A stretch of DNA of 64,000 bases from an uncultured bacterium. Lineage in GTDB: Bacteria; Patescibacteriota; Patescibacteriia; Magasanikbacterales; UBA922. The notes below the pieces were generated by a model. It was not told the DNA's origin. It saw only the letters and a program-made list of their open reading frames with translations, and did no database searches. The DNA lies in assembly GCA_937861125.1 (NCBI GenBank), contig CALMAY010000037.1, positions 132,941 through 196,940 on the forward strand, written 5' to 3'. The position numbers were made by a program, and so were the translations under genes. Within the stretch, counting starts at the first letter, position 1; every line of letters starts with the position of its first letter. Shown here in pieces: positions 12,382 through 56,911 of this stretch.

Positions 12382-12846
12382 ATGACACAAACAATTTCAC
12401 TTTTTGTTTTGAAAAACAAAACTTTGTTGGCAGTTCTTACTGCAGTTGTATTGGCTATGACTTTTGTAGCTCCTACATTCGCTTTTGATGAGACAGATCC
12501 AGGAGATACTCTTGGTTTAGCAGATCTCACAGAACATGGCGTTGCTGGAACCGATGGTACGGGTATTCAGCTTGGTACGACCAAACTTGAGTCAACTATT
12601 GCCTCTTTGATCAACACATTTATCGGATTGCTCGGTATCGTTGCTGTGATTATCATCCTTATCGGTGGTTTCCAATGGATGACTGCTGGTGGAGATGATG
12701 AAAAGATTGGTGGCGCAAAGAAGATGATCTATGCTGGTGTAGCCGGCCTCGCAGTTATCTTGGCAGCGTATGCTATCGCATCATTTATCATCGAACAACT
12801 TACAACTGCTACTGGATTTGACAGTGGCAGTGGCACTACGCCTTAA
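12382..12846 (+). CDS. secreted two-TM pilin-like protein, family member 4/11 (short form; candidate major subunit)
   Basis: AGGTAGG lies ~10 nt upstream of ATG 12382 (GTG 12373 is an alternative start). Signal peptide ends TFA. Core IILIGGFQWMTAGGDDEKIGGAKKMIYAGVAGLAVILAAYAIA. The gene has its own leader and terminator. Confidence 0.6.
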   Translation: MTQTISLFVLKNKTLLAVLTAVVLAMTFVAPTFAFDETDPGDTLGLADLTEHGVAGTDGTGIQLGTTKLESTIASLINTFIGLLGIVAVIIILIGGFQWMTAGGDDEKIGGAKKMIYAGVAGLAVILAAYAIASFIIEQLTTATGFDSGSGTTP

Positions 12847-12865
12847 TAATGGTAGATTATATTAT

Positions 12866-12899
12866 TTTTTGTGGGGTGGGGAAACTCACCCTACAAAAA
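12866..12899 (+). terminator. strong hairpin terminator after pilin-like gene 4
   Basis: TTTTTGTGGGGTG pairs with TCACCCTACAAAAA (13-14 bp including G:U), 20 nt after the stop. Confidence 0.6.
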
Positions 12900-12953
12900 G
12901 TATATTGTGAACAGTGATAAGAAATTTTTTATCAGTTTTCATAATATATTTCT

Positions 12954-13358
12954 ATGAATTTGTTCTCTTTTCCTCGATTTATTGTTCCTTTTTTTGCTGG
13001 GCTATGTTTGCTTCAGTCTATATTTTTGTTTTCGCCAGTACAGGCAGCGTGTGATGGATATGACCCAAATGATCCGTATGGTCTGGATTGTGGCGAAGGG
13101 ACCAATCTTACAGATAAAGATGCACGAGACGTGGTGGCAAATCTTATCAATGTAGTATTACAAATTACTGGGATCATTTTGGTTTTGTATATTATCTATG
13201 CCGGGTATCTATGGATGACAGCGGCTGGCGATGATGAGCAGATTGGTAAAGCGAAGTCTATTGTGAGTGCTTGTGTGATGGGACTCATGCTCGTGTTGGC
13301 ATCGTACTCTATTGCAAGTTTTGTAATTGAAAAATTACGGAGTGCTACAGGGACATAA
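12954..13358 (+). CDS. secreted two-TM pilin-like protein, family member 5/11
   Basis: Signal peptide ending PVQA; core YIIYAGYLWMTAAGDDEQIGKAKSIVSACVMGLMLVLASYSIA. Confidence 0.6.
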   Translation: MNLFSFPRFIVPFFAGLCLLQSIFLFSPVQAACDGYDPNDPYGLDCGEGTNLTDKDARDVVANLINVVLQITGIILVLYIIYAGYLWMTAAGDDEQIGKAKSIVSACVMGLMLVLASYSIASFVIEKLRSATGT

Positions 13359-13369
13359 TTATATATATT

Positions 13370-13945
13370 ATGAAAAAATTTCTTGCTTGTCTTTCTATCG
13401 CATTTGTACTTATTACTCCAGTATTTGCGCAAGATTATGGACTAGGTGCTACGGCTGATGCTGCCAATCTCAGAGGTGAGAGTAACCCAACCGTAATACT
13501 GGGTAAAATAATTGGTGCAGGACTCTCATTGATAGGTATCGTCTTTTTTGTCTTGACTCTGTATGCTGGTATTACATGGATGGTAGCACGCGGAAATGAA
13601 GAGAGTGCAAAAAAAGCGATTAATACCATCATTGCCGCGGCGATTGGTATGATTATTACTATGTCTGCTTATGCGATTACGAGCTTTATCCTCGAGGCGG
13701 CAAATCAAAGTGCGTTGGGTAGTGGGTCAATACCACAGCCACAAAATAATATATACACAGGATGTCAGTGTTATAGAGTTGACCCACCTGGATCTAATTT
13801 TGGAAGTTGTAATAATGATAGTACTATTCAAAATTTGAATGACTGTAAGCAAATGTGTTCAGGTCTAGATATTCAAGAGCAAATACCAGGCGGAGTTCAG
13901 GGGACAACACAGAGAGTAACATTGGATGGAAAATTGTGTGGATAG
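13370..13945 (+). CDS. secreted two-TM pilin-like protein, family member 6/11, Cys-containing C-terminal module
   Basis: Signal peptide MKKFLACLSIAFVLITPVFA; core LTLYAGITWMVARGNEESAKKAINTIIAAAIGMIITMSAYAIT; tail CQCYRV...SCNND...DCKQMC...LCG. Confidence 0.6.
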   Translation: MKKFLACLSIAFVLITPVFAQDYGLGATADAANLRGESNPTVILGKIIGAGLSLIGIVFFVLTLYAGITWMVARGNEESAKKAINTIIAAAIGMIITMSAYAITSFILEAANQSALGSGSIPQPQNNIYTGCQCYRVDPPGSNFGSCNNDSTIQNLNDCKQMCSGLDIQEQIPGGVQGTTQRVTLDGKLCG

Positions 13946-13953
13946 ACAAAATT

Positions 13954-14631
13954 ATGTATAGAAAAAATAAAATGAAATTAAATAAAAAATATCATAATTT
14001 AGTGTTAATTTTCTGTATTAGTATTTTTTATTTTATTCCTCAATTTGTATCTGCTCAAACCGCAGGTGACATCGCAAAAAATACATTGCAACAGGGTTTT
14101 GTTCAAAACACAGGGGTTGTACAGGGGAATTTGGGTATTACGATTTCAAGTATTGTTACTATCTTGTTGAGTTTTTTGGGTATTATTTTTTTTATCCTTG
14201 CGGTATATGCTGGGTACATCTGGACGACTGCTGAAGGGGATGAAGGCAAGATAGGTGAGGCAAAACAAACGATCATTCGTGCATCACTTGGGTTTTTTGT
14301 CGTCATTTCATCGTATGCATTGTCCTCTTTTATTACTACTCAGTTTGCTGAGCAAGCGAATGTGCCTGGAAATGGTAATGATACACCGCTTACACCAGGC
14401 CCTCTTGGCTGTTGTCTAGATAAAGTGAGTGCAACTGGTAGACCCGGTCCAGACGGTTTGGGAGTATGGACTGATCGGTTTGCTACGCAAGATGAATGTT
14501 CTCGGGTAGGTAATGATCCAAACGATCCAGGAGATGTGCGATATGGCGACGGGACATGGCAATGGCGAGCAGATATTACCCCAGATAATGGAGGCGAACC
14601 AGCGTGTGAGGAAGCACGGAGAGCAAAATAA
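13954..14631 (+). CDS. secreted two-TM pilin-like protein, family member 7/11, C-terminal module
   Basis: ATG 13954 (or 13972) lies after the upstream stop. Signal peptide ends FVSA. Core LAVYAGYIWTTAEGDEGKIGEAKQTIIRASLGFFVVISSYALS. Tail GCCLDK...DECSRVGNDPNDPG...ACEE. Confidence 0.55.
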   Translation: MYRKNKMKLNKKYHNLVLIFCISIFYFIPQFVSAQTAGDIAKNTLQQGFVQNTGVVQGNLGITISSIVTILLSFLGIIFFILAVYAGYIWTTAEGDEGKIGEAKQTIIRASLGFFVVISSYALSSFITTQFAEQANVPGNGNDTPLTPGPLGCCLDKVSATGRPGPDGLGVWTDRFATQDECSRVGNDPNDPGDVRYGDGTWQWRADITPDNGGEPACEEARRAK

Positions 14632-14654
14632 TTTGGTAAACTAATTTGTTTGAT

Positions 14655-15047
14655 ATGAAATCATTTTTTTTATGGAGTATTGGTGGGATAATGGGGATGT
14701 TTTGCTTCTGTCTTTTTTTTGTACCAATTGTGTCTGCTGAAATAGGCAATTTGTCTAGTGCTGACAATTTGTTACAAGATGCTGGTAGAGATACAGGCAT
14801 TGGTCAGGGATCTGAATTGGGTAGTCTACCAAATGCCATCGCAGCAGCACTTCGATTTATTTTGTCAATTCTAGGCACACTGATGTTTGGGTATATGGTG
14901 TATGCTGGGTATCTATGGATGACAGCGCAGGGTGATGAGGGTGCCATTGGTCATGCCAAAGGCATTATGGTCAATACGGTCATTGGTTTTCTCGTTGTGG
15001 TGAGTGCGTGGGCAATTACCTATCTTGTTCAATCACGTTTTCAATAA
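14655..15047 (+). CDS. secreted two-TM pilin-like protein, family member 8/11
   Basis: ATG 14655; signal peptide ending IVSA; core YMVYAGYLWMTAQGDEGAIGHAKGIMVNTVIGFLVVVSAWAIT. Confidence 0.6.
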   Translation: MKSFFLWSIGGIMGMFCFCLFFVPIVSAEIGNLSSADNLLQDAGRDTGIGQGSELGSLPNAIAAALRFILSILGTLMFGYMVYAGYLWMTAQGDEGAIGHAKGIMVNTVIGFLVVVSAWAITYLVQSRFQ

Positions 15048-15052
15048 AAGGT

Positions 15053-15442
15053 ATGAATACTATTAAAACATTTTTCACCTCTCTTATTGTTTGTACTATT
15101 GCTTTTGTTGGGTTTTTGGAGCCCACGTATGCCGTGCTTAATACAGGTATTGGTGGGGATGGTATAGCAGGGCAGGCGGCTGCGGGTGCAGGGTATAGTC
15201 AGACCGATGAGTTTACGTTGTCGATGATTATTGGGTTGGTGGTACAATTCGTCTTTGGGTTTTTTGGAGTACTTTTTACTTTACTCACTGTGTATGCTGG
15301 GTTCAACTGGATGACTGCTCAGGGTGATAGTGGAAAGGTGGAAACAGCACAAAATACTATTCAGCAGGCAATTATTGGTATGATTATTTGTTTTTCTGGA
15401 TATGGTATTTCCAATTTTGTTCTCAATGCGTTTTTTGGTTAA
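15053..15442 (+). CDS. secreted two-TM pilin-like protein, family member 9/11
   Basis: ATG 15053 (MNTIKTFFTSLIVCTIAFVG); core LTVYAGFNWMTAQGDSGKVETAQNTIQQAIIGMIICFSGYGIS. Confidence 0.6.
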   Translation: MNTIKTFFTSLIVCTIAFVGFLEPTYAVLNTGIGGDGIAGQAAAGAGYSQTDEFTLSMIIGLVVQFVFGFFGVLFTLLTVYAGFNWMTAQGDSGKVETAQNTIQQAIIGMIICFSGYGISNFVLNAFFG

Positions 15443-15446
15443 AACT

Positions 15447-15947
15447 ATGATGTATCGTTTATATATCATTGGTGTTAGTACTTTCTTTGTTTTTTTTGGA
15501 ATGTCTTTTTGTGTACAGGACGTATTAGCACAGAAAATAATTACTGGTACTAGTAGTGTCGATGCGGTTAGACAATTAAATAGTGCTGGAGTACTAAATT
15601 CAAGTGCAAGTACAACGCTTGCGCAAGATCCACGTGTGACAGCAGCGATTGCGGTTCGATATTTTCTTTCTTTACTCGGTACAATTTTGCTTATTCTTAT
15701 TGTCATGTCTGGGTACTGGTATTTTACCGCACGTGGTGATGACGAAAAGATTACGCGCGCACAGACGACGATCAAACAGGCATTGATGGGGATGGTGCTT
15801 ATTTTGACTGCATATGCGATTGCTACATATACAATCAATAGTCTTTCATCCACTCTCAAAAAAGGGGATCAAGATGGGGTGCGTGATGAGTTGAGATTTG
15901 ATCCAGATGTGCGTGATGTGGGTGATCTATCTATCCCGAATTTTTGA
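15447..15947 (+). CDS. secreted two-TM pilin-like protein, family member 10/11
   Basis: ATG 15447 (MMYRLYIIGVSTFFVFFGMSFC); core LIVMSGYWYFTARGDDEKITRAQTTIKQALMGMVLILTAYAIA. Confidence 0.6.
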   Translation: MMYRLYIIGVSTFFVFFGMSFCVQDVLAQKIITGTSSVDAVRQLNSAGVLNSSASTTLAQDPRVTAAIAVRYFLSLLGTILLILIVMSGYWYFTARGDDEKITRAQTTIKQALMGMVLILTAYAIATYTINSLSSTLKKGDQDGVRDELRFDPDVRDVGDLSIPNF

Positions 15948-15955
15948 TTAACAGT

Positions 15956-16558
15956 ATGTTTTATTTTTTTGGCAAAAAGATAAATATAGTATATGCGATC
16001 GTATTGGTTATATTTGGTGTATCTTTTTTCTCTCAGCCAATAATTGTTATTGCGGAAGACGCTCCGTCTCAGCAAGCAATGATTTTTCAACAAAATAATG
16101 CATTTGCAGAGAGTTCTGGGCTTGATGAGATAGATAGTGATCCTAGATTGCTTGTCGCACTTGTCATTCAGGTTGTGTCAAGTGTCCTTGGTATCGCACT
16201 CGTCTGTTATGGCGTATATGGTGGATATATAATGATGCTTGCCAATGGTGATAGTGAGCAAATATCAATGGGAAAGAAGGCGGTGACTCGTGCAATTATA
16301 GGGAGTGTTATTATTGTGTCAGCATATTCAGTCTCGCGGTTTGTTGGGTCCACACTTCAGCGCAATGTGCTGCCAAACGCAGCAAATGGTGGTTTTACTT
16401 CACCACAAGGAAATGGTGAACCACAGCTTAATGATCCATTTTATGAACGGGATGATACTTTTTGTACTGGTATCACATGTGAGGAGAATGGTATTAGTGG
16501 TACGATTTTTCCTGACACGCCTGACAATGGAAGTGGGTGGACTATTGAAGTAAACTAG
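15956..16558 (+). CDS. secreted two-TM pilin-like protein, family member 11/11
   Basis: ATG 15956; signal peptide ending VIA; core CYGVYGGYIMMLANGDSEQISMGKKAVTRAIIGSVIIVSAYSVS; C-terminal tail with CTGITCEE. Confidence 0.55.
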   Translation: MFYFFGKKINIVYAIVLVIFGVSFFSQPIIVIAEDAPSQQAMIFQQNNAFAESSGLDEIDSDPRLLVALVIQVVSSVLGIALVCYGVYGGYIMMLANGDSEQISMGKKAVTRAIIGSVIIVSAYSVSRFVGSTLQRNVLPNAANGGFTSPQGNGEPQLNDPFYERDDTFCTGITCEENGISGTIFPDTPDNGSGWTIEVN

Positions 16559-26893: not shown

Positions 26894-27036
26894 GTCATTC
26901 CGACCGAAACGAAGTGAAGTAGAGGAATCCCTTTCGTAAGCCTACACGTTTTTGTTCACTTCGTTCTGGTTAAATCATCTATAAGAAAGGGATCCTTCGA
27001 CTGCACTTCGCTACGCTACGTTTCGCTCAGGATGAC
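26894..27036. repeat. MITE-like element, full copy A (143 bp) with imperfect terminal inverted repeats
   Basis: It starts GTCATTCCGACCGAAACGAAGTGAAG...GGAATCCC and ends GGGATCCTTCGACTGCACTTCGCTACG...CTCAGGATGAC. The internal CACTTCGTTCTG..TAAGAAAGGGATCC is shared with the copy at 52697-52806. Confidence 0.7.
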
Positions 27037-35638: not shown

Positions 35639-35722
35639 ATAAGATACATGGAACAAGTTACAAAATATAAAAGTAGTGTAGCATTGTCGTGTCTGTTCAT
35701 CAATATATGCTTTTTGTCTCTA

Positions 35723-35751
35723 TTGACAGCAAAAAAAAGTTGGAGTAGTAT
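35723..35751 (+). promoter_or_regulatory. sigma70-type promoter of the ileS leader
   Basis: TTGACA (35723-35728), 17-nt spacer, TAGTAT (35746-35751). Confidence 0.5.
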
Positions 35752-35770
35752 GAATTATAGAAGCATTTGA

Positions 35771-35964
35771 CTCGACGATCAATCGAGAACGTCCGCCCAA
35801 GGCGGACAAGCTAGAGGAAGAAAACAATGTTATTTGTGTAAAGTCGGGGATTCTTCGACTTCGCTCAGGATGACGTTGTCAGTAGAGCCTCTCGGGCAAG
35901 CCCGTCACAGCAGTAAGTAAGTAAAAGCGCAAGATGGTACCGTCTCCCGTAGTGGGGACTCTTG
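35771..35964 (+). promoter_or_regulatory. T-box-like riboswitch leader of ileS (Ile specifier)
   Basis: The hairpin CTCGA-CGAUCAA-TCGAG (35771-35787) presents AUC followed by A. The antiterminator-type element has helix CAAGA/TCTTG (35930-34 / 35960-64), a 7-nt bulge UGGUACC (35935-41) and inner helix GTCTCCC/GGGGAC. Confidence 0.65.
35846..35874. repeat. partial (one-arm) copy of the MITE-like element
   Basis: GGGGATTCTTCGACTTCGCTCAGGATGAC matches the right terminal repeat of the copies at 26894 and 52697. It lies inside the ileS leader. Confidence 0.6.
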
Positions 35965-35996
35965 GCACGTTAATAGCGTGTTTTTGTTTTTTCTAT

Positions 35997-38888
35997 ATGT
36001 ATAACTCCAATCAAAACGAACTCGATATACTCGAGTTTTGGGACAAGGATCAAACATTTCAAAAATCAATCGATCAGCGTCCGGATAATAAACCGTATGT
36101 GTTTTATGATGGCCCTCCGTTTGCAACTGGGTTGCCGCATTACGGACATATTGTGGCATCTACCATGAAAGATGTAATCCCTCGTTACAAAACGATGCAG
36201 GGATATCGTGTGAATCGTGTGTGGGGGTGGGACTGTCATGGATTACCAATTGAAAATATTGTGGAAAAAGAGTTGGGTACCAAGAGTAAAAAAGAGATCG
36301 AAGAGATGGGTGTGGCGAAGTTTAATGAATTGTGTGAGACCAAAGTGCTCGGGTATGTAGATGATTGGAAAAAGGTGATCCGACGTTTGGGTCGCTGGGT
36401 AGATATGGATCATGCGTACAAGACAATGGATCTGACATATATGGAGAGTGTCTGGTGGGTATTCAAACAGCTCTGGGACAAGGGATTGGTATATCAGGGG
36501 TATCGTGCGATGCATATCTGCCCTCGTTGTGAAACGACACTTTCTCAGCAGGAGGTGAGTGAGGGGTATAAGGATGTGAAAGATATATCAGTAATTGCCA
36601 AATTCAAAATTACAAATTCAAAAGAAATTTCTAATTCCAAATTTCTAATTTCTAATGACCTGCCAATATATGTTTTGGCTTGGACAACAACACCGTGGAC
36701 GTTGCCGGGAAATGTGTTACTTGCTGTTGGTGCTGATATTGAATATTCAGTCGTTGTATTTGAAGGTGCTCACTATATCGTGGCAAAAGAGCTTGTGTTA
36801 TCCGTATTTGCTGATAAAGAATTTCAAGTGGTGGATAGTTGTGTCGGTGCTGATTTAGTTGGACTCACATACGAACCACTTTTTCCATATTATGGACATG
36901 TGGAAGGAATTGAGAATGCGTATCGTGTGGTTACTGCTGATTTTGTCACGACCACTGATGGTACAGGTGTGGTACATATCGCTCCTGCGTTTGGAACTGA
37001 TGACTATGAAGTATTCAAAAAAGAAAAAGTACCATTTATCCAGCATGTGGGTATGGATGGTAGGTTTAAAAAAGAGGTGCTTGATTTTGCAGGAGTACAT
37101 GTCAAACCGATTGGTGATCATACTGCGACAGATGTGGAGATCATCAAATATCTTGCACACAACGGAAAATTGTTTAGCAAATTAAAATATGAACACAGTT
37201 ATCCACATTGCTGGAGATGCGACACACCGCTCCTCAATTACGCAACATCATCATGGTTTGTTTCTGTTGAAAAAGTAAAAGAACGTGCACTAGAATTGGC
37301 GAAAGATATCAACTGGTCACCAGAACATATCAAAGAAGGACGATTTGGTCAGTGGCTCGCGGGGGCAAGGGACTGGTCTATCTCACGTCAGCGTTTTTGG
37401 GCGACGACGATTCCTGTCTGGCAGAGTGAGGATGGTGATACAATTTGTTATGGATCAGTCGCTGAGCTTGAAGCGGATAGTGGGGTAACTGTGACTAATT
37501 TGCACAAGCATAAAGTGGATGAGATTGTAGTAGAAAAAAATGGTAAAACATACAAACGTGTGCCTGATGTACTCGATACATGGTTTGATTCAGGCTCAAT
37601 GCCATACGCGGAGCGTCATTATCCATTTGAAAAGAAGGGTGAATTTGAGGGAAGTTTTCCAGCAGAGTTTATCGCCGAAGGTCAGGACCAGACTCGTGCG
37701 TGGTTTTACTATCTGCATGTGCTTGCGACTGCCGTGATGGATAAACCAGCGTTCAAAAATGTAATTGTCAACGGAATTGTATTGGCAGAAGATGGAAAAA
37801 AGATGAGTAAAAAATTGCAGAACTATCCAGATCCAATGAAGCTCATTGAGAGTTATGGATCAGATGCACTGCGATACTATCTCATGACCTCACCAGTTGT
37901 TGCTGCAGAGAATCTCAACTTTGCCGAAGCAGGTGTGCGTGAGGTGTTTAGTAAGCTTGTGAATACATTGTGGAATGTGCTAGAGATGTATAAACAGGTG
38001 TCAGTTAGCCAGTCAGCCAGTTTTCAGTCCGAACACGTGCTTGATCGATGGATCGTGGCAAAATTGCATGTGTTGATTCGTGATGTGACAGATGGACTTG
38101 AGAAATACGAATTGCATACAGCATCTCGTCCTATTGCGGATTTTGTGCTTGGTGATTTGTCACAGTGGTATGTGCGTCGTTCTCGTGATCGATTTGAGAG
38201 TGGTGAGGGTGTGGAGACACTGCGTATGGTGCTTGAGACTGTGTCGAAGCTACTTGCTCCGTTTACGCCGTTTATTACTGAGACAGTATATCGAGAAACA
38301 GTGATTAGTAATCAGGACACAAAGCAGAGCGTACATCTGGAAATGTGGCCTGTGTGTGATGAATCTTTGATTGATGCTATGCTTCTCGAAGATATGGATC
38401 GTGCACGAAAAGTTGTAGAGATGGGATTGTCATTGCGTAAAGAAGCCGGTATAAAAGTTCGTCAACCACTGTCGTCTCTAGTTACCAGTTACCAGTTACC
38501 AATTACTCTACTGTCTGTCGTTGCTGATGAATTGAATATAAAACAAGTGGTAGTGGGAGCAGTTGAAGCAGAGAACGGTGTGGTAGTAAAGGAAGATGGA
38601 GATCTGAAAGTTGGTCTGTATATAGAAGTAACACCAGAGTTAAAACGTGAAGGTCTTGCTCGTGAAATCGTTCGTGCAATTAATAGTTTACGAAAAGAAA
38701 AAGGATTGCGTGCAAGTGACAAGATTACTATTACGTGGTCTACTCAGAGTGAGACATTGCGATCTGTGTTGGTGGAATTTGCATCAGGTATTGCATCTGA
38801 TACTGCAGCAACTGCTGTTAGTGAGGGTGCAGGAGAGACGTTAGTAGAAATTGAGGGCGAAGAAATATTGATTTCATTTAACAAGTAA
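35997..38888 (+). CDS. ileS: isoleucine--tRNA ligase
   Basis: FYDGPPFATGLPHYGHI (HIGH), WTTTPWTLP and KMSKKLQNYP (KMSKS). The ATG at 35934 in the ORF track lies inside the T-box bulge, so ATG 35997 (MYNSNQNELDILEFW) is preferred. Confidence 0.9.
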   Translation: MYNSNQNELDILEFWDKDQTFQKSIDQRPDNKPYVFYDGPPFATGLPHYGHIVASTMKDVIPRYKTMQGYRVNRVWGWDCHGLPIENIVEKELGTKSKKEIEEMGVAKFNELCETKVLGYVDDWKKVIRRLGRWVDMDHAYKTMDLTYMESVWWVFKQLWDKGLVYQGYRAMHICPRCETTLSQQEVSEGYKDVKDISVIAKFKITNSKEISNSKFLISNDLPIYVLAWTTTPWTLPGNVLLAVGADIEYSVVVFEGAHYIVAKELVLSVFADKEFQVVDSCVGADLVGLTYEPLFPYYGHVEGIENAYRVVTADFVTTTDGTGVVHIAPAFGTDDYEVFKKEKVPFIQHVGMDGRFKKEVLDFAGVHVKPIGDHTATDVEIIKYLAHNGKLFSKLKYEHSYPHCWRCDTPLLNYATSSWFVSVEKVKERALELAKDINWSPEHIKEGRFGQWLAGARDWSISRQRFWATTIPVWQSEDGDTICYGSVAELEADSGVTVTNLHKHKVDEIVVEKNGKTYKRVPDVLDTWFDSGSMPYAERHYPFEKKGEFEGSFPAEFIAEGQDQTRAWFYYLHVLATAVMDKPAFKNVIVNGIVLAEDGKKMSKKLQNYPDPMKLIESYGSDALRYYLMTSPVVAAENLNFAEAGVREVFSKLVNTLWNVLEMYKQVSVSQSASFQSEHVLDRWIVAKLHVLIRDVTDGLEKYELHTASRPIADFVLGDLSQWYVRRSRDRFESGEGVETLRMVLETVSKLLAPFTPFITETVYRETVISNQDTKQSVHLEMWPVCDESLIDAMLLEDMDRARKVVEMGLSLRKEAGIKVRQPLSSLVTSYQLPITLLSVVADELNIKQVVVGAVEAENGVVVKEDGDLKVGLYIEVTPELKREGLAREIVRAINSLRKEKGLRASDKITITWSTQSETLRSVLVEFASGIASDTAATAVSEGAGETLVEIEGEEILISFNK

Positions 38889-52696: not shown

Positions 52697-52806
52697 GTCA
52701 TTCCCGCGAAGGCGGGAATCTATTTTGAAACCAACAGACTGTGGTTTCACTTCGTTCTGATTCAACGTAGTAAGAAAGGGATCCCTCGGCTTCGCTCGGG
52801 ATGACA
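52697..52806. repeat. MITE-like element, copy B (110 bp)
   Basis: GTCATTCCCGCGAAGGCGGGAATC...CACTTCGTTCTGATTCAA..TAAGAAAGGGATCCCTCGGCTTCGCTCGGGATGAC. It shares the termini and internal block of copy A. Confidence 0.7.
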
Positions 52807-56469: not shown

Positions 56470-56764
56470 TGTCCATACGCAAGAAAGCGGTTATACATAT
56501 TGACACAACAGGCAATTTGTATTATCACCTTCCTCGTACATTTTTAGTCACTTTGTATTGGGTCTTTCGCCAAAACGATGAACCTGATCAGACGCGACCA
56601 CGGGCTCTCTGGTTACACTGTGTCCGACTGGCATCCACTCCCTCTGGGTATGTGGTGAGAATGCTCCGAAGCGCGCATCATATTACGGGCAACATGATGC
56701 AAGCAGAGGAAACAACCAAATAAAACATAAGAATGTGGACATAGTCCGCATATTTTTTGTTTTT
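56470..56764 (+). other. unassigned ~290-nt unit: candidate structured ncRNA or 84-aa basic protein
   Basis: It is bounded by the promoter at 56439 and the terminator hairpin ATGTGGAC/GTCCGCAT + T-run (56733-56764). The core (56580-56700) is more GC-rich than the surrounding intergenic DNA. An ATG at 56470 opens an 84-codon frame with no recognisable family. Confidence 0.3.
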
Positions 56765-56866
56765 TAGATTCCAGAATCCAGTTTACAAACAGATTTCAAA
56801 ATACAAATATCAATCGTTTGAAATTTGAAACCTATAATCTGTTTGGAGTTTGGTGCCTGGAATCTA
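56765..56866. repeat. 102-nt imperfect palindrome upstream of rpoB
   Basis: TAGATTCCAG (56765-74) pairs with CTGGAATCTA (56857-66). Inner pairs are AAACAGATT/AATCTGTTT and TTTCAAA/TTTGAAA. Confidence 0.6.
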
Positions 56867-56911
56867 AAAGATAATACATTTGTTAATTAATTATTTATTT
56901 ATCCACACGGT

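Follow-up and report, generated by a model that had tools for sequence, protein, structure and literature searches.

The ileS locus and its leader

The DNA studied here, called the window throughout, is a stretch of 64,000 nt of contig CALMAY010000037.1 from an uncultured patescibacterium. Its forward strand carries ileS, encoding a type-2 (eukaryote-like) isoleucyl-tRNA synthetase (IleRS). Between a sigma-70-type promoter and the ileS start codon runs a leader (35757-35996) that is, on comparative sequence grounds, almost certainly a genuine tRNA-Ile T-box riboswitch of the ultrashort Stem I class. The fuller reading, in which this leader senses tRNA-Ile and controls ileS, most likely via transcription attenuation, is in our judgement probable.

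The product read from ATG 35997 begins MYNSNQ.... Alignments with the IleRS of relatives begin at residues 1-8 of this product, so that the ATG at 35997 is, by homology, the true ileS start. A first-pass annotation of the same DNA had dismissed an ATG at 35934 as an artefact of open reading frame (ORF) calling; this was correct, as positions 35934-36 straddle the last base of helix A1 and the T-box bulge, and the relatives support 35997.

Conservation of the leader among Patescibacteria

The heptamer TGGTACC was found upstream of ileS in 29 of the first 80 related loci (designated here by L numbers), with compensation in its A1/A2 flanks visible by eye. Leaders carrying it shared a hairpin with an NNAUCAN loop, the motif gCUnnnGGAAGAA, a variable hairpin and the motif AGUAGAACCnnnCGGGUAAGCCCGUAAUAGCUGUAAUUAAG, and the loop of IIA paired with a downstream GCU (IIB). 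Together, as read from the sequences, these motifs make up a T-box decoding domain, consisting of a kink-turn (K-turn)-like base, an ultrashort Stem I, Stem II with an S-turn, and IIA/IIB.

A covariance model (R1) was built from the decoding domain of 13 relatives that have no optional hairpin, with the window excluded, and was searched against 161 sources (Patescibacteria ileS loci, about 1 Mb, both strands). The model matched the window once in 64 kb, at 35779-35921 (55.1 bits, E 5e-8), and matched 52 of the 161 sources, every time on the ileS (+) strand and upstream of ileS. UGGUACC, which is not in the model, followed all 52 matches at a distance of 3-100 nt (50 exact, 2 one-base variants).

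Covariation was pronounced in both parts of the leader. For Stem II, IIA and IIB together, 95.4% of alignment cells were paired, compared with 70.1% for shuffles and 28-47% when partners were slid, and 203 cells were compensatory versus 60. The model alignment (A3) assigns the extra hairpin as Stem I where that hairpin is present; Stem I pairs were excluded from its covariation count and assessed separately. For A1 and A2, a structure-guided parse was excluded from the statistics because its 3' strand had been chosen by pairing, which is circular, and a structure-blind MAFFT alignment was used instead. It gave 86.8% paired cells versus 70.8% in shuffles and 49 compensatory cells versus 15.8 (0/500 shuffles). 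RNAalifold, applied to a MAFFT alignment of 26 leaders, recovered Stem II, IIA, A1 and A2 with double changes in 21 of 23 pairs. The alignment of ileS leaders from related genomes, proposed in the first-pass annotation, thus revealed overwhelming conservation of the AUC loop and of UGGUACC, together with covarying A1 and A2.

These results bear on the simplest alternative, that unrelated hairpins happen to flank a fortuitous TGGTACC, a KpnI-site palindrome. The heptamer is expected several times in 64 kb and by itself is not significant, and Rfam returned no match. The composite exceeds chance. The model E value, the decoding domain plus bulge upstream of ileS in 52/52 cases, the covariation and the homology to the T99 T-box described below refute a chance resemblance, whose probability is practically nil.

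The nearest IleRS genes were at most 65% identical and came from metagenome-assembled genomes of Patescibacteria, or candidate phyla radiation (CPR) bacteria, including Magasanikbacteria and Falkow-, Moran- and Uhrbacteria, some of them mislabelled in third-party annotation records. A metagenome scan for close relatives of the window yielded a best match of 72% identity over the N-terminal 300 aa and no near-identical leaders.

Relation to known T-boxes

According to the literature, the ultrashort class is translational, occurs mostly in Actinobacteria and always regulates ileS; a short Stem I carries the specifier in its terminal loop, and neither Stem II nor IIA/B is dispensable. The Stem II S-turn and the IIA/B pseudoknot are present in most T-boxes except glyQS. 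The crystallised decoding domain from the ileS T-box in Nocardia farcinica (PDB 6UFM, cited in PMC10651847) has the sequence GGCGACGAUCCGGCCAUCACCGGGGAGCCUUCGGAAGAAC...CAGUAGAACCGAACGGGUGAGCCCCGUCACAGCUCG. When the N. farcinica T-box (T99) was compared with a sequence-only profile of the CPR leaders, it aligned over positions 8-96 with 34.3 bits, whereas the best of 2000 shuffles reached 6.8. Because T99 aligns end to end far above the shuffles, the CPR leaders are, at the sequence level, homologous to the actinobacterial ultrashort class. The resemblance to these RNAs that the first-pass annotation had pointed out was therefore borne out.

The likeness to the actinobacterial T-boxes (Mycobacterium tuberculosis/smegmatis, N. 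farcinica) extends to the regulated gene, ileS, here of type 2; to a Stem I of 4-5 bp that stands on what looks like a K-turn-type base and holds AUC and a purine in its terminal loop; to the missing distal double T-loop platform; to the AAGAA/AGUAGA S-turn of Stem II; to the IIA/B motif CGGGxxAGCCCGUxAxAGC; to UGGN in a 7-nt bulge; and to the order of the motifs. The differences are the Patescibacteria/CPR host, an output made of a helix and U-run with no Shine-Dalgarno (SD) sequence where the actinobacterial RNAs have an SD sequestrator, the loss of Stem III from the window while the actinobacterial RNAs have it, a IIA that is one pair shorter, and two additions in the window copy, namely a hairpin at the base of Stem I and a repeat within the apex of Stem II.

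Canonical transcriptional T-boxes (RF00230; Bacillus subtilis tyrS, glyQS) share the logic of a cognate specifier, UGGNACC between A1 and A2, and a downstream helix with a U-tract. The leader of L052 aligned to the whole of RF00230 (model positions 1-219, 47.3 bits, E 1e-9) with 76 Stem I positions deleted, and Stem II, IIA/B, Stem III and the antiterminator all lined up with the model; the A1 3' strand of L052 is also part of its terminator. Unlike the canonical RNAs, the CPR leaders miss about 76 Stem I positions (distal loop, AG bulge, platform), parts that the field regards as essential to transcriptional T-boxes. The window in addition falls below any reporting threshold, has no Stem III, has a G-C rather than a G-U basal pair in A2, and has a short terminator of −6.9 kcal/mol with an antiterminator overlap of 1-3 nt instead of about 12.

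Architecture of the leader

As shown in Table 1, the leader contains every part of the shared decoding domain, followed by a purine-rich linker, a discriminator and a terminator-like hairpin. The first-pass annotation had described two elements, the specifier hairpin and the antiterminator. Both are real, and what had been missed between them is Stem II with its S-turn, IIA/B and the purine linker.

Table 1 Features of the ileS leader in window coordinates
Feature	Position	Strand	Details
Sigma-70-type promoter	35723..35751	+	TTGACA 35723-35728, 17-nt spacer, TAGTAT 35746-35751; 10/12 consensus match
Stem I basal helix, 5' strand	35762..35770	+	AGC 35762-64, pairs with GCU 35810-12; then AUUUGA, bulged strand of K-turn-like motif; sequence reading
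Ultrashort Stem I	35771..35787	+	CUCGA 35771-75 / UCGAG 35783-87; 7-nt specifier loop CGAUCAA; 5 bp
Specifier	35778-35780	+	AUC, with conserved purine A 35781; in Stem I terminal loop, upstream of ileS
Extra hairpin	35791..35807	+	GUCCGCC-CAA-GGCGGAC; 17 nt, inserted on 3' side of Stem I base; predicted by folding
Basal helix 3' strand, Stem II and S-turn 5' strands	35810..35822	+	GCU; Stem II proximal AGAGG 35813-17; S-turn AAGAA 35818-22
Distal Stem II	35824..35879	+	unusually long hairpin, 56 nt; predicted by folding
Stem II apex	35846-35875	+	dispersed-repeat copy (GGGAUUCUUCGACUUCGCUCAGGAUGACG)
S-turn and Stem II 3' strands	35881..35892	+	S-turn AGUAGAG 35881-87; Stem II proximal CCUCU 35888-92
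Stem IIA/IIB	35893..35911	+	IIA CGG 35893-95 / CCG 35902-04, loop GCAAGC; IIB pseudoknot partner to 35911
Purine-rich linker	35912..35929	+	AGUAAGUAAGUAAAAGCG; conserved AAG and AAAG purines
Discriminator (antiterminator)	35930..35964	+	A1, bulge and A2; −10.7 kcal/mol
Helix A1	35930-34 / 35960-64	+	CAAGA / UCUUG
T-box bulge	35935-41	+	UGGUACC, 7 nt
Helix A2	35942-47 / 35954-59	+	6 pairs, loop CGUAGU
Intrinsic-terminator-like hairpin	35964-82	+	GGCACGUU-AAU-AGCGUGUU; 8 pairs, 3 G-C; −6.6 to −6.9 kcal/mol
U-run after the hairpin	to 35993	+	TTTGTTTTTT / UUUGUUUUUU
ileS	35997..38888	+	type-2 IleRS, 963 aa; PDB IleRS matches 700-755 bits

The promoter was confirmed where the first-pass annotation had placed it, and the transcript would start near 35757-35760. 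Promoters of the form TTGAY-N16-18-TAnnnT were present in 29 of 46 related leaders, ending 13-55 nt 5' of Stem I (13-35 nt in 27 of the 29), versus 1.6% of controls; judged from this comparison, the window promoter is orthologous to them. A promoter-like site also lies on the opposite strand (35782-35754 (-); TTGATC, 17-nt spacer, TATAAT; 10/12 match), with a −35 box that corresponds, in reverse complement, to GAUCAA of the specifier loop, and it faces a divergent gene ending at 35656. In the whole-leader minimum free energy (MFE) fold, the leader 5' end (35757-35763, AUAGAAG) is predicted to pair with UUUCUAU (35989-35996), directly 5' of the ileS AUG.

The basal helix of Stem I varied in a compensatory manner among relatives (AGC/GCU, GAC/GUC, GGC/GUC, AUC/GAU), as read from the sequences. 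Its bulge coincides with the K-turn position of RF00230 in L052 and with that of the N. farcinica T-box. The 5' strand of the window, AGC-AUUU-GA, fits a K-turn. Its 3' strand has AAC-hairpin-AA in place of GA, and the ...GA-GCU form is found there in relatives that lack the extra hairpin. A hairpin of different sequence occupies this position in about half of the relatives and is absent from the rest. On the folding prediction, the extra hairpin of the window would turn the K-turn-like base into a three-way junction.

The specifier hairpin, with AUC and a purine displayed in a truncated Stem I, was confirmed as first described. AUC(A) was found in the loop of a hairpin of at least 4 pairs in about 45 of the 52 related leaders, on stems of diverse sequence (CCCG/CGGG, GGGG/CCCC, CCUG/CAGG, UGAGG/CCUCG, GUUUG/CAAAC, CUCGA/UCGAG). 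Covariation of Stem I was only moderate on the structure-blind alignment because 6- and 7-nt loops shift the register. The specifier loop of the window aligned with CCAUCAC of N. farcinica T99.

In Stem II, the proximal helix was paired in 97.8% of cells, with compensatory changes at all 5 pairs. The AGUAGA of the S-turn is near-invariant in relatives and corresponds to AGUAGAA of N. farcinica T99, in which A69-G70-A71 contact the specifier. IIA was 100% and IIB 94% paired across relatives, and IIB showed compensatory variants (GGAA/UUCC in L008, AGCAU/AUGCU in L047, GGUA/UACC in L039).

The distal part of Stem II measures 10-25 nt in relatives versus 56 nt in the window. Because relatives have only these 10-25 nt, the repeat in the window is, from the sequence comparison, an insertion at a length-tolerant apex. 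It matched copies at 26990-27036 and 52779-52805, and its core 16-mer occurs four times in the window versus 0.36 expected. The first-pass annotation had noted half a copy of a miniature inverted-repeat transposable element (MITE) inside the leader; the repeat is indeed there, as one of four copies in the window. This dispersed hairpin-forming repeat (GGGAUyCyUCGrCU...CGCUCrGGAUGAC) is located at 26894-26909 (-), 26990-27036 (+), 35846-35875 (+) and 52779-52805 (+), and the two copies at 26.9-27.0 kb form an inverted, MITE-like pair with about 110 nt between them.

A leader-peptide mini-ORF (AUG-UUA-UUU-GUG-UAA, 35827-41) behind 'GAGGAAG' was considered and rejected. Its apparent upstream signal, GAGGAAGAA, is the conserved Stem II/S-turn motif; moreover, the hairpin that holds the mini-ORF bears the repeat and is absent from relatives, and the mini-ORF contains no Ile codon and belongs to a genome that does not use SD sequences.

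Discriminator, linker and Stem III

Helix A1 and the bulge were confirmed at the positions first proposed, the bulge being exact in 50 of the 52 leaders. A2 is also present, although its original 7/6 split, GUCUCCC/GGGGAC, was slightly off, since 6 pairs form. In the family, the A2 pair adjacent to the bulge was counted as GC 11, UA 5, AU 4, GU 1 and UG 1.

In other T-boxes, purines of the AAG and AAAG type found in the linker flank Stem III. The review literature describes Stem III as flanked by 5'-RRRxG...AA-3', integral to the discriminator and indispensable for binding the tRNA 3' end. About 20 of the 52 leaders (~40%), the window included, share a deletion of Stem III and keep the purine strings: the window has GUAAG-U-AAAAG where L003 has AAUUAAG-GCCACUUGGC-AAAG. 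The upstream segment was at most 10 nt long in 11 of the 26 listed leaders.

Terminators downstream of the discriminator

A weak terminator-like hairpin and T-run downstream of A1 had been noticed at first reading, and both were borne out (−6.9 kcal/mol). In the window the spacing between A1 and this hairpin is zero, and G35964 belongs to both. Across the family, 41 of 42 parsed leaders had a U-run no more than 60 nt past A1 (median 11 nt), compared with 17% of control windows, and this run kept its place by the discriminator even in leaders that have a further 140-385 nt before the ileS start.

At least four arrangements of the helix before the U-run were seen. In subtype a (15 loci, e.g. L052, L025, L067), it uses the A1 3' strand (CCUUAGCAC...GUGUUAAGG) with −12 to −15 kcal/mol, which is canonical competition. 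In subtype b (at least 13 loci, e.g. L003, L086, L006, L011), the strand before the U-run pairs not with A1 but with the purine linker or with the segment that follows the linker AAG, which in leaders possessing a Stem III forms the 5' strand of that stem. The strand pairs included GCCAC/GUGGU, GCUACC/GGUAGC, GCACCAA/UUGGUGU and GCCACGAUA/UAUUGUGGU, and complementarity scored 5.85 for cognate versus 4.44 for non-cognate strands (0/20000 permutations). These sequences suggest a switch of Stem III versus terminator in subtype b. Also in this subtype (L003, L086, L006, L011, L001 and others), a single long hairpin in front of the U-tract encloses the entire discriminator. Subtype d (L063, L146) uses the A1 5' strand. 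Subtype c comprises the window, L004, L010/L087, L017, L016, L012, L013, L007 and L019, and has a self-contained 5-8 bp hairpin at zero spacing after A1. Mutual exclusion of the helix and the antiterminator is clear in subtypes a, b and d.

The T-box with its terminator can also be distant from ileS, 500-900 nt upstream of it in several relatives (L050 2521-2934, L004 2540-3000, also L045, L031, L023, L058-L062). L050 has a 137-aa ORF between the T-box and ileS, so that its T-box would control a two-gene operon, and in L004 the spacer contains no (+)-strand ORF.

Transcription attenuation or translational control

SD-like motifs (GGAG/GAGG/AGGA at most 18 nt before ATG) were detected at only 2 of the 61 window ORFs of at least 150 aa, and none was detected at ileS. 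Because the genome is almost without SD sites, SD sequestration has nothing to act on. The U-run tied to the discriminator, the textbook terminators in a subgroup and the SD-poor genome make attenuation likelier than translational control, and on balance we favour, from these sequence features, a leader that acts by transcription attenuation.

The first-pass annotation had suggested that regulation may be translational, which is not supported by the fixed position of the U-run, its frequency against controls, or the rarity of SD sites. In the translational form that we considered, undocked A-rich linker purines (35912-35927) would pair with the U-rich tract (35983-35992) by the AUG, and tRNA binding would free this tract as a ribosome landing site at the SD-less start 35997. 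Such a mechanism would agree with the known ultrashort-Stem-I ileS T-boxes, which are translational, with an AUG only 15 nt past the hairpin, and with the MFE fold of 35912-35992, in which AAAAGCG pairs with the U-tract around both helices. It would also suit a terminator hairpin that is weak and compatible with A1, and the AAGGA/GAGGA in the terminator 3' strands of subgroup a. However, ileS has no SD and the genome almost none; the U-run of relatives stays by the discriminator with the start codon as far as 385 nt off, or beyond another ORF, which a start-site element would not explain; AAGGA in subgroup a is 18-24 nt from the AUG, too distant for an SD; and A/U pairing with the U-tract would equally lengthen the terminator stem. 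We therefore consider translational control unlikely.

Several observations weigh against a transcription-attenuating T-box at this locus. RF00230 had no match on the window at the gathering threshold or at E<=10, nor on L010, the relative of the closest type. The Rfam scan that had been proposed as a check thus failed on the window, and at E<=10 the 421-nt and 231-nt window slices gave only noise (MIR821, mir-1898, KCNQ1OT1), as did L010. At the gathering threshold, which is 93 bits, 16 relatives also had no match. The first-pass annotation would have dropped the T-box if no covariance-model match and no conservation of the leader were seen; the former holds for Rfam, while the leaders proved conserved. 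A tRNA-Ile gene, sought for its anticodon and base 73, was found neither in the window nor in L001-L060.

The structure of the window copy raises further objections. With 13 nt between the linker AAG and the bulge, a Stem III helix is impossible. Beside the bulge, A2 closes with G35942-C35959 and not with a G-U wobble; in canonical T-boxes such a wobble closes A2 there and is described as the primary, steric sensor of the aminoacyl group. IIB retains only G35900-C35911 and C35901-G35910, its third pair being broken (A-A). The hairpin is weak compared with canonical T-box terminators, which average −19.5 kcal/mol in TBDB, and it overlaps A1 by G35964 only, or by 3 nt if A1 is extended. Nearest-neighbour energies were −10.7 kcal/mol for A1 and A2, −13.7 kcal/mol with a two-pair extension (G35927-C35966, C35928-G35965), −6.9 kcal/mol for the hairpin alone and −17.3 kcal/mol for A1, A2 and the hairpin together, the most stable option tested. 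Because of this combined fold, the hairpin and the antiterminator are, on the energy model, not mutually exclusive in secondary structure. In addition, the field holds that transcriptional T-boxes need a long Stem I for fast tRNA capture.

Some of these features could also mean that the T-box is decaying, still binding tRNA-Ile but, after losing Stem III, the G-U sensor and the overlapping terminator strand, no longer discriminating charging, with the hairpin and U-run as a constitutive leaky attenuator. The absent Stem III and G-U pair, the two-pair IIB, the repeat inserted in Stem II, the missing energetic exclusion between A1 and the hairpin and the blindness of Rfam to the window copy would all fit. 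Nevertheless, the same Stem-III-less zero-spacing layout occurs in at least 8 other species (L004, L010, L017, L016, L012, L013, L007, L019), whose IleRS are 56-59% identical to that of the window. Across these species AUC, the S-turn and UGGUACC are invariant, A1 and A2 carry compensatory changes, and both purine strings flanking Stem III are retained. Because the layout, AUC and UGGUACC are kept and A1/A2 changes are compensatory, the discriminator appears to be under purifying selection and not decay, and we regard the decaying T-box as quite improbable.

Proposed mechanism

Bacterial tRNA-Ile has the anticodon GAU and A73. In the attenuation model, the GAU anticodon would pair with AUC, and the S-turn of Stem II would buttress this duplex, by analogy with solved T-boxes. 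The 3' NCCA of uncharged tRNA would likewise pair with UGGU of the bulge, stack on A1 and stabilise it, and on charged tRNA the aminoacyl group would block this pairing. With A1 unstabilised, the hairpin 35964-35982 would form fully beside the U-run, and RNA polymerase would terminate before ileS. If uncharged tRNA is bound, A1 would be rigid, perhaps extended by G35927-C35966 and C35928-G35965, and would abut the hairpin at zero spacing. The locked A1 would then withhold or sterically block the bottom 1-3 pairs of the weak hairpin, resulting in readthrough. The conserved zero spacing and the recurrent potential for a two-pair extension in subtype c are consistent with this specific switch and do not prove it; we offer it tentatively and with considerable doubt.

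A broader interpretation, speculative and somewhat unlikely in its full form, would see in Patescibacteria a minimal co-transcriptional T-box that has no tRNA-elbow platform and, in the subgroup of the window, neither Stem III nor the G-U sensor. Its expression platform would have been rewired repeatedly, the strand ahead of the U-run competing, according to lineage, with the A1 3' strand, the A1 5' strand, or the Stem III 5' strand or purine linker. In the window's own arrangement the zero-spacing hairpin, whose completion a tRNA-locked A1 would sterically block, would possibly be a circularly permuted Stem III. The stronger proposal that such a 3' hairpin, as a permuted Stem III, is needed in all Stem-III-less leaders was rejected as not general, since L011, L081, L020, L006 and L063 have neither.

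Other features of the window

Tandem paralogous genes at 12644-16252 share repeated segments of 40-76 nt with 60-82% identity (repeat families D1-D3). The longest inverted repeat of the window lies at 56749-56882 (65 nt, 4-nt spacer, 71% complementary).

Significance

The kind of element is already known, being a T-box of the ultrashort ileS class. Our literature search found no report of T-boxes in CPR, Patescibacteria or Parcubacteria and none of natural Stem-III-less discriminators, and TBDB applied its ultrashort model to Actinobacteria only. The phylum, the combination of an ultrashort Stem I with intrinsic terminators, the natural Stem-III-less discriminators and the diverse rewiring of the expression platform therefore appear to be new, although Sherwood et al. 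2015 may mention leaders in which an ultrashort Stem I is coupled to terminators. At present, these leaders are unannotated, as the Rfam gathering threshold misses 17 of the 17 members tested.

The field associates an ultrashort Stem I with translational control that is slow and reversible. With an ultrashort Stem I and terminators, including textbook overlapping ones, the Patescibacteria family challenges both this translational-only rule and the rule that transcription requires a long Stem I. The ~40% of members that have lost Stem III and kept its purine strings likewise challenge the indispensability of Stem III. In this family, nature provides minimal constructs on which the requirements of a T-box can be tested, and the candidate phyla radiation joins the groups with tRNA-sensing riboswitches. 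In these organisms of minimal metabolism, which import amino acids, the sensing of tRNA-Ile charging at ileS would be one of the few visible regulatory circuits.

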